A stretch of DNA of 64,000 nucleotides from Escherichia coli (GTDB lineage: Bacteria; Pseudomonadota; Gammaproteobacteria; Enterobacterales; Enterobacteriaceae). Position 1 is the stretch's first letter. Every line of letters begins with the position of its first letter. Positions 46,753 through 47,710 of this stretch are shown piece by piece. The stretch lies in assembly GCF_041886205.1 (NCBI RefSeq), contig NZ_CP169029.1; one strand, given 5' to 3'. The notes below the pieces were generated by a model that did not search any database, was not told the origin of the DNA, and saw nothing but the letters and a program-made list of their open reading frames with translations. A program made the position numbers and the translations under genes.

Positions 46753-46995
46753 TCATTTCTTTAGCAAGTTGGCAATCCATAACATTAAACCTGTAAAGCT
46801 ACCAATGTATATACCTATCTTACCTAAAAATAAAATAATGTTCGATGAAAAAGACACTGGTATTCCTTTATAAAAAAAGAAAAAAAATTCCCCGCATACA
46901 TATAAAATCGCCCCTGTTAGAAAAATTGAAACCATGCTGAATACAATAAAAAAAACAGAGGAAGAATGAATTTTAGAGCTTTCATTTGCCACCAC
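46753..46995 (-). CDS. cdiI: Orphan CdiI, small two-TM inner-membrane immunity protein (EC93-like size and topology)
   Basis: 80 aa with two hydrophobic helices; GTG start overlapping the 3' end of the upstream toxin ORF. Confidence 0.55.
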   Translation of the reverse strand: MVANESSKIHSSSVFFIVFSMVSIFLTGAILYVCGEFFFFFYKGIPVSFSSNIILFLGKIGIYIGSFTGLMLWIANLLKK

Positions 46996-47710
46996 CTTCC
47001 TGCTTCATTTTGTACTCTGTATACTTACCTCCGGCTTCTGAAGTGATACTACCACCAATGTCACCAATTGAGCTGGGGACATTGCTTGGTTTCATTTCTT
47101 TTGAGATTCCCAAATCTCCTTGGACTTCAGTAACACTTCTCAACTCAGAATTAAACTTCGGATCCCAACCACCTTTCCACCAGTTTGCCCCTGCATTAAC
47201 ACCCCATGAAAGTCCTTTACCAAGGCCATAGCCAATACCCGAACCGGTACCATTGATAAGTGCACCTGACAATGGATCTTTGTCGTCAATCCAGTTACCC
47301 AGTGCCCCTCCGGCAGCATTCCATCCAACGGTTCCTTTCCAGCCCTGCCCCATGGTGATTACATTGACCCATCCTGCAATGATTGCATTTTCAGGATCAA
47401 CTGAACTATCTACCATGTAACCAATTCCTGCATTTGCACCTGTGCCAAGAACCCACATGGCCTGAGCACCGCCAGGTAAGAAAGCTACACTACCAGTGGC
47501 CAACGCTCCGGCATACGCTTTATTGACTGCTTCTCCTCGCTTACAGGCTTCACCGGAAGGATTATCACTACAGGAGAGAACATCAGCGCCATGCTCTCTG
47601 GCTTTTTCCGTCTGGAGCCATTCACTGCCACCCAGCAGGTTATTCTCAACAACAACTCTTTCCGCCGCAGGTTGCTGTGATAAAAAAGTTTTCCCTGTGC
47701 TTTCAGCGCG
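46982..47710 (-). CDS. Orphan cdiA-CT module: VENN plus glycine-rich, probably membrane-acting toxin
   Basis: Frame opens after a stop at 47711..47713 with no ATG; ...AAERVVVENNLLGGSEW...; toxin rich in Gly, Trp and hydrophobic stretches. Confidence 0.7.
   Translation of the reverse strand, partial: RAESTGKTFLSQQPAAERVVVENNLLGGSEWLQTEKAREHGADVLSCSDNPSGEACKRGEAVNKAYAGALATGSVAFLPGGAQAMWVLGTGANAGIGYMVDSSVDPENAIIAGWVNVITMGQGWKGTVGWNAAGGALGNWIDDKDPLSGALINGTGSGIGYGLGKGLSWGVNAGANWWKGGWDPKFNSELRSVTEVQGDLGISKEMKPSNVPSSIGDIGGSITSEAGGKYTEYKMKQEGGGK

Follow-up and report, generated by a model that had tools for sequence, protein, structure and literature searches.

A putative orphan cdiA-CT/cdiI cassette of the alpha-helical CDI ionophore family, with a frameshifted immunity gene, in Escherichia coli

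The 64,000-nucleotide stretch of Escherichia coli DNA analysed here (the window) carries on its minus strand, at 46753-47710, a small toxin-immunity module behind a full contact-dependent inhibition (CDI) operon, cdiB-cdiA-cdiI. We consider it very likely that this module is an orphan cassette of a CdiA C-terminal toxin region (CT) and its cdiI gene, that it belongs to the alpha-helical 'type 10' family of CDI ionophores, and that it is a silent reserve whose immunity gene has suffered a frameshift. The initial annotation had described an orphan toxin rich in glycine and tryptophan at 46753-47710, overlapped at 46753-46995 by an open reading frame (ORF) for a small immunity protein with two hydrophobic segments, and both descriptions were borne out: from its VENN motif onwards the toxin fragment contains 19.4% Gly, 4.5% Trp and 9.9% Ala and it has no start codon, and the small ORF shows two maxima of Kyte-Doolittle hydropathy. 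The toxin fragment is made up as follows.

47651-47710, minus strand: open stretch upstream of VENN, RAESTGKTFLSQQPAAERVV, with no start codon and preceded by a stop at 47711-47713
47639-47650, minus strand: VENN motif and start of the CdiA-CT, reading ...AERVV-VENN, in a pre-toxin region annotated by the Prokaryotic Genome Annotation Pipeline (PGAP)
47477-47650, minus strand: entry domain, CT residues 1-58 (VENNLLGGSEW...CSDNPSGEAC...ATGSVAFL), of M15/group 6 type by sequence match
46985-47476, minus strand: ionophore domain, CT residues 59-222, ending ...TEYKMKQEGGGK, identified by profile search, hhalign and a structure model
47189-47251, minus strand: extended glycine zipper GTGSGIGYGLGKGLSWGVNAG, CT residues 134-154, in predicted helix alpha4

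The toxin frame is open from 47710 to the TGA at 46982-46984, with 218 residues after VENN. Of the possible start codons ATG, GTG and TTG, the earliest in frame is a TTG at 47503, well within the toxin, and the fragment is therefore not translatable as a unit; PGAP labels the identical region 'VENN motif pre-toxin domain-containing protein, missing N-terminus'. The glycine zipper consists of five overlapping GxxxGxxxG motifs from G134 through G154, and G134, G140 and Y141 are invariant among 70 relatives. No nucleotide homology of 47651-47710, or of the orphan, to the resident cdiA was found beyond the VENN codons, and a scan of the cassette for a promoter or terminator of its own gave sites no more often than it did in shuffled controls.

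These features were compared with those of the orphan module cdiA-CTo1/cdiIo1 of EC93 (Poole et al., 2011; PMC3150448), for which four traits were looked at. Like cdiA-CTo1, the window toxin is a VENN-started fragment without an initiation codon that lies behind cdiBAI on the same strand; the homology among its copies likewise begins at VENN, at query positions 96-111, and the same cassette is found on a full-length cdiA in another species. The fourth trait separates the two, as cdiIo1 has an intact start codon and Shine-Dalgarno (SD) sequence and was shown to confer immunity (PMC3150448), whereas the orphan cdiI of the window retains its ATG at 46985 and SD at 46992-46998 but has a run of eight T (T8) that breaks the frame and leaves an ATG ORF of 22 codons.

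The link to the EC93-type ionophores comes from profile comparisons. Database relatives of the toxin number 197; a profile (A3) of the C-terminal 164 CT residues, built from 25 relatives, gave 182 matches in a search of 1.84 billion representative proteins. The matches bear several unlike sequences between VENN and the matched domain, for example VENNSLAHVL...GTVMSGGIL, which corresponds to the TMC005/group 5 oligonucleotides, and they show the same modular build of entry domain and ionophore domain that has been described for this family (Halvorsen et al., 2024; PMC11630599). CT(EC93) matches several of these A3 hits by phmmer (P0288, 4.8e-20; P0225, 5e-11) in alignments that span the ionophore part. 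Further, hhalign of A3 against an EC93-group profile (EC93 plus five bridging sequences) gave a probability of 98.9% (E = 1e-17) over 122 columns, which include the KG(E/D)DP loop and the glycine zipper and pair G168, G172 and G176 of EC93 with G136, G140 and G144 of the window CT. For the immunity proteins, BLASTP of CdiI against CdiI(EC93) gave E = 6e-5 over 29 residues, and the two have in common the C-terminal helix pattern KIGIxIGxxxGLxLW.

On these comparisons the relationship of the window CT to EC93 is remote, but it lies within the same ionophore superfamily, and to that extent the resemblance to the EC93 pair proposed in the initial annotation stands; what does not stand is membership of the group of EC93 itself. 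The CT(EC93)/CdiI(EC93) pair (group 1, AcrB-dependent) shares with the window pair the superfamily, a glycine zipper in helix alpha4 and a CdiI hairpin of about 79 amino acids; it differs in having an unrelated entry domain, another predicted receptor and a pairwise identity near noise, and CT(EC93) forms the active end of a full-length CdiA. The window CT lacks the group 1 motif PEGQDP(A/V)RGLL of helix alpha3, and the entry domains of the two toxins do not align.

Structure prediction with AlphaFold2 (AF2) of the whole CT, using a 70-sequence alignment of close relatives, gave an unusable model (predicted local distance difference test, pLDDT, of 42), with helices at 10-29 and 34-51 of the entry domain at low confidence. 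A more diverse 42-sequence alignment of the ionophore domain gave an all-helical model with a mean pLDDT of 62 and helices at CT residues 60-81, 86-98, 104-121, 126-158 and 190-219; pLDDT stood at 70-81 for roughly the first 90 residues and fell to about 45-55 thereafter.

E. coli ionophores have been sorted by entry domain into six groups (PMC11630599). In that study CT(M15), of group 6, depolarises cells and requires DtpA or DtpB, and the M15 entry domain (to L58) confers that dependence on the EC93 ionophore; M15 is the closest tested relative of the window toxin. The published M15 oligonucleotides specify VENNLLG (CH4108), LLGGSEW (CH4235, CH6269) and ...ATGSVALL58 (CH6273), with a CT end of ...EAGK (CH4109) and a cdiI start of MKRLLI (CH4058); those for TMC005 specify VENNSLA... 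and ...GTVMSGGIL60, and residue 5 of M15 is Leu according to the text (PMC11630599). Two database proteins, P0043 and P0044, together with their downstream gene (MKNLLI...HIMKVKGF), fit the M15 description. Residues 1-58 of the window CT are 91.4% identical to the M15-like P0043, and the values fall to 55% for the ionophore domain, 47% for its last 45 residues and 31% for CdiI. By this measure the module is a group 6 toxin with an ionophore/immunity specificity of its own and not an AcrB-dependent group 1 toxin, and its predicted receptor is DtpA or DtpB. An own specificity fits the observation that pairs of one group differ at the helices in contact with CdiI, and that in the tests of that study immunity genes from non-cognate pairs protected little or not at all (PMC11630599).

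The window and M15 pairs therefore have in common the entry domain (VENNLLGGSEW...two Cys...ATGSVA(L/F)L58), the overall architecture and a CdiI of the 77-amino-acid size class that overlaps the toxin stop. Their CdiI proteins, however, are identical only at a level where tested intra-group pairs usually lacked cross-immunity, and CT(M15) is listed in the tables of PMC11630599 on a CdiA effector, whereas the window copy is an orphan whose toxin has no start codon and whose cdiI is frameshifted. Two other group assignments were considered. Group 4 (YciB) was raised by close Edwardsiella relatives and a Cys pair and was rejected on the match of the entry sequence to M15; group 5 (TMC005) was raised by two 'mid' oligonucleotides in S4 Table of PMC11630599 and was rejected on the evidence of six other oligonucleotides, the text of that paper and the HIMKVKGF end of cdiI. 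In that table the strain labels of CH3953/CH3954 ('TMC005-mid') and CH4127/CH4128 ('M15-mid') are apparently swapped, since one pair ends in HIMKVKGF and a stop, the C-terminus of the cdiI that follows the M15-like P0044 (...AMEAGK).

The immunity gene had initially been given as 80 codons from a GTG. An ORF of that form exists, but the native form has 77 amino acids from an ATG and is frameshifted in the window. The relevant features are these.

46753-46995, minus strand: 80-codon ORF with a GTG start, of which codon 15 onwards is the cdiI body (remainder of the first transmembrane segment, TM1, then the loop and TM2) and the first 14 codons are out-of-frame read-through
46992-46998, minus strand: SD-like AAGGTGG, 6 nt upstream of the ATG at 46985 and overlapping the GTGs at 46995 and 46992
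46983-46985, minus strand: native cdiI ATG in an ATGA overlap with the toxin stop, as indicated by the sequence, the ZYB39 coding sequence and the overlap in Enterobacter (our locus L015)
46948-46955, minus strand: T8 homopolymer (T9 in intact alleles), the site of a 1-nt deletion by allele comparison, with U UUU UUA in the mRNA
46917-46919, minus strand: premature TAA that ends the ATG frame after 22 codons (MKALKFILPLFFLLYSAWFQFF, then stop)

The ATGA overlap is an arrangement typical of cdiA-cdiI junctions, and the sequence just inside the toxin/cdiI overlap is AAGGTGGTGGCAAATGA; the SD spacing suits the ATG at 46985 and not the GTGs at 46995 or 46992. Hydropathy in a 19-residue Kyte-Doolittle window, the single method used for CdiI topology, gave two maxima above 1.6 for the 80-codon ORF, in windows starting at residues 8-24 (peak 2.37) and 52-54/60; this ORF, which overlaps the end of the toxin frame, has a grand average of hydropathy (GRAVY) of 1.16. 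The native 77-amino-acid form has a GRAVY of 1.43, two hydrophobic segments and Lys-rich termini, with Lys at both ends.

E. coli ZYB39 has an annotated 77-amino-acid coding sequence from the same ATG (MKALKFILPLFFFIVFSMVSIFLTG...), and from residue 13 on its CdiI equals the window 80-amino-acid ORF from residue 16 on, save for one Ile/Val change. Apart from the missing T the window cdiI is 98.7% identical to the intact allele. T9 is found in ZYB39 and VG35A2, and T8 in the window and five other genomes (six of the eight complete genomes). A search with the repaired CdiI gave 34 clusters: the 77-amino-acid MK(x)LKF... form is present in six genera (Escherichia, Salmonella, Citrobacter, Enterobacter, Erwinia and Buttiauxella), and six clusters of 79 amino acids open with a peptide from the other frame (MANESSKIH...), two of them with further frameshifts. 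Allele comparison thus makes the 77-amino-acid ATG form the ancestral cdiI and the window copy a 1-nt deletion allele; by the same comparison, the 80-amino-acid ORF is an artefact of that deletion, its GTG being the first start of the ORF and not the native one. As initiation at the SD and ATG would give a peptide of 22 residues, immunity in the window strain has probably been lost or much reduced through the loss of one T from the T9 run. Full-length CdiI could still arise from the T8 allele by way of the poorly placed GTGs, an internal ATG at 46935 or slippage on U UUU UUA.

The loop-proximal part of cdiI holds another T homopolymer at 46860-46880 on the minus strand, GAATTTTTTTTCTT, which encodes FFFFF, and clusters P0150 and P0153 have additional frameshifts in cdiI. 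The sequences suggest that both T runs of the gene are mutational hotspots.

Among 5426 complete E. coli genomes, with the subtype counted at a minimum of 80% of its length, it was present in eight, at 95-99.7% nucleotide identity; its recurrence in these genomes and its database relatives mean that the module is not a chance ORF. It was an orphan, behind various cdi loci, in all carrier genomes inspected. In the window the toxin frame runs through 222 codons without interruption, and its protein shares 93% identity with that of ZYB39. In Enterobacter (CP063441.1) the same subtype forms the end of a 4057-amino-acid CdiA (...GGKYTEYKMKQVGDGK) with an overlapping 77-amino-acid cdiI, and in sister strains of this Enterobacter it is again an orphan.

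Another setting for a CT of this kind was seen in E. coli M15 from Korea (NZ_CP185789.1; 1629-3838 of our locus L006) and dozens of other E. coli, where an annotated 664-amino-acid ORF for the transposase TnpC of IS66 runs in frame into the CdiA pre-toxin region, AENN and the CT. The group 6-like CT of this chimera in M15 is 82% identical to the window CT and is followed by a 72-amino-acid cdiI; unlike ordinary orphans, the chimeric ORF has a start codon.

When carried on a full-length CdiA, the CT would be delivered into the periplasm of a neighbouring cell. The entry domain (residues 1-58, M15/group 6) would then use the peptide transporters DtpA or DtpB of the inner membrane to insert the toxin, and the ionophore domain (residues 59-222), with its glycine zipper, is predicted to lodge in the cytoplasmic membrane, where it would collapse the membrane potential. 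The cognate 77-amino-acid CdiI, a putative two-helix hairpin, would block the ionophore helices by binding to them within the membrane. In its orphan position the toxin part, having no start codon, would be a silent reserve. The orphan region of EC93 is present on the cdiA transcript, its toxin is not detectably made, and its orphan cdiI is expressed and protective (PMC3150448). By analogy, the window cassette is probably co-transcribed with cdiBAI, and the sole expected product of such a cassette would be the immunity protein, which would shield the cell against neighbours with the same toxin subtype.

For the immunity gene we also weighed the possibility that the GTG at 46995 (or 46992) initiates an intact and functional CdiI of 79-80 amino acids, so that the strain is fully immune. 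The GTG ORF is open for 80 codons and retains about 20 residues of TM1 and all of TM2; PGAP has annotated a 79-amino-acid GTG-initiated protein in one genome, and six database clusters consist of such forms, among them one in E. albertii and one of a diverged lineage, P0148. The commonness of T8 among the complete genomes also speaks for it. Nevertheless, we think this improbable: both GTGs lie inside the SD-like AAGGTGG, so that neither could have a separate SD; the first 14 residues (VVANESSKIHSSSV) have no counterpart in the 77-amino-acid family and are the other frame of MKALKFILPLFF; PGAP left the ORF unannotated in four of the six T8 or T9 genomes inspected; and the further frameshifts in two of the 79-amino-acid clusters suggest decay. 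Another way in which the T8 allele might be alive is suggested by its mRNA run, CUG UUU UUU UUA, in which the canonical -1 slippery heptamer U UUU UUA is embedded. If the ribosome slipped by -1 there, or RNA polymerase slippage added an extra U, the exact 77-amino-acid protein of T9 would result, and the T8/T9 tract could then work as a switch, leaky or phase-variable, for the level of orphan immunity. Slippage, if true, would account for T8 being the commoner allele and for its reappearance, with an intact downstream frame, in a diverged lineage; even so, we give it little credence and hold to a frameshift that has probably cost the strain most or all of this immunity.

A larger doubt concerns present-day function, the one point on which the silent reserve proposed here parts from a rival that shares its view of the module's identity, namely that the whole cassette is a functionless, decaying relic kept by linkage to the cdi island. 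This is a serious possibility, although we lean somewhat away from it. The toxin has no start codon and cdiI is frameshifted; there is no homology to the resident cdiA that would permit recombination, and promoter-like sites do not exceed chance; remnants of insertion sequences (IS) and other orphan fragments lie nearby; and a plasmid of EC93 holds a frameshifted orphan toxin of the same family. Yet the 222-codon toxin frame is uninterrupted and close in protein to ZYB39, the near identity of cdiI to the intact allele apart from one T would make any decay very recent, and orphan regions can be co-transcribed with cdiBAI and express cdiI (PMC3150448). A quite different proposal is that the toxin acts on the envelope by non-ionophoric means, as a lipid II or peptidoglycan enzyme or a colicin-like voltage-gated channel, and that its likeness to EC93 is one of Gly/Ala-rich composition. 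The weak pairwise BLAST to EC93, a compositionally biased sequence and the lack of a high-confidence fold would agree with this, but we regard it as very improbable, given that collinear profile matches, bias-corrected by HMMER and HH-suite, span most of the domain beyond the Gly run, that Pfam showed no colicin or enzyme domain at E <= 10, that the immunity protein is a predicted integral membrane hairpin as in all tested members, and that CT(M15) depolarises cells.

Several observations nevertheless weigh against the silent ionophore reserve that we prefer. BLASTP of the CT against CT(EC93) gave 11/40 identities (E = 0.005), near noise; pairwise BLASTP alone would have looked like refutation, and profile methods were therefore needed. 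The bridging sequences of the EC93-group profile had first been found with A3, which makes the hhalign test transitive, as in PSI-BLAST, and not independent. The CT had no match of any kind in Pfam at E <= 10, and none in NCBIfam, where CdiI and six neighbouring proteins were also searched; this absence of a family model is consistent with the statement that the EC93 ionophore is without a database designation (Halvorsen et al., 2024; PMC11630599). Neither a sequence-profile search of the PDB nor Foldseek against the PDB gave anything significant among solved structures. The five-helix bundle is moderately supported, with helix alpha5 and the alpha4-alpha5 linker below pLDDT 55. Activity of the window subtype is read from its sequence, the direct data lying elsewhere in the family; the five differences among the 58 entry-domain positions mean that receptor use may differ; T8 as the commoner allele is odd for plain loss of function, unless the run is a mutational hotspot or there is no selection; and some of the assemblies may contain homopolymer miscalls. 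Alignment to the CT and CdiI of EC93 had been proposed in the initial annotation as its own check: weak in BLASTP and positive by profile, and with two hydrophobic segments in the immunity ORF, it leaves the ionophore proposal in place.

The family, its groups and receptors and the orphan concept are already published, and to these the cassette adds a frameshifted allele and one further specificity type; it leaves the present view of CDI as it was. Its value lies mainly in annotation, for a toxin family without a Pfam or NCBIfam model, in which PGAP labels the toxin a pseudogene under the generic name 'VENN motif pre-toxin' and often leaves the immunity gene unannotated. Recognising the cassette points to membrane depolarisation as its likely activity, to DtpA/DtpB as the likely receptor and to a distinct immunity specificity. 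As the homopolymer frameshift shows, a gene that is broken can still present a long ORF opening with a rare start codon. The contrast between an orphan-only occurrence in complete E. coli (8 of 5426) and a full-length CdiA in Enterobacter indicates that cassettes shift between reserve and active positions.

A tblastn hit on the EC93 plasmid pCP127 (NZ_CP061330.1) was at first a candidate for the classic EC93 toxin and was rejected, as it is a frameshifted orphan behind a second (Ntox25) cdi locus; the classic CT(EC93), which gives no tblastn match, and its 79-amino-acid CdiI sit at another locus of EC93. The pCP127 orphan (about 21160-22000 of the record; 14070-14911 of our locus L002) is 55% identical to the window toxin over 98% of the query. 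It resembles the window module in toxin family, in lying behind a cdi operon (cdiBAI-2) and in being followed by a 79-amino-acid hydrophobic ORF; it differs in that the toxin itself is frameshifted into ORFs of 125 and 63 amino acids, in an entry domain of a second subtype (...CQKAMNERDAVG...) and in an unrelated CdiI (25%). The prototype strain EC93 thus carries a group 6-related orphan behind its second cdi locus; the word 'orphan' does not occur in the 2021 EC93 genome paper (PMC8190604). Ntox25 (type 14) ionophores and pore-forming colicins also depolarise membranes and have small membrane immunity proteins, but Ntox25 is a predicted beta-barrel, and the domains of colicins, bundles of 10 helices, need no receptor for insertion; the window toxin has no sequence match to either.

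The resident CDI operon upstream of the orphan module comprises the following genes.

58153-59919, minus strand: cdiB
48361-58140, minus strand: cdiA, 3259 amino acids
47879-48364, minus strand: resident cdiI, 161 amino acids

The orphan module begins 169 nt past the resident cdiI. PGAP annotation of near-identical E. coli chromosomes (99.6-99.7% identity across the 1061 nt queried) agrees on the cdi locus. The C-terminus of the resident CdiA (47879-49401, minus strand) has a DUF6862 domain after VENN (Pfam E = 5e-10); its toxin domain beyond DUF6862 had no Pfam or NCBIfam family match, and the 161-amino-acid CdiI is equally without a family.

Directly 3' of the orphan cdiI lies a 93-codon ORF (46467-46748, minus strand) rich in Gly, Ala, Thr and Asp ('...KIVAGNNMLNMIATETAAN...'), which PGAP names 'hypothetical' or 'hemolysin domain protein'; it had no match in Pfam or NCBIfam, and the relatives found for it are E. 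coli ORFs throughout, 50-158 amino acids long. It is followed at 45931-46452 (minus strand) by a 173-amino-acid DUF2569 membrane protein with an N-terminal CxxC...CxxC. The region 45931-46748 may be a degenerate orphan CT remnant, with 'AGNN' in place of VENN, and its membrane immunity protein. Beyond it, a second orphan module occupies 44182-45896 (minus strand), with a CT at 44973-45896 that has PT-VENN, a weak Ntox28 match and the end ...KGYGI, a cdiI at 44590-44976, and then a 3' remnant of IS66 tnpC at 44182-44559. This second CT recalls the CysK-activated tRNase of uropathogenic E. coli (UPEC) 536 and may be akin to it.

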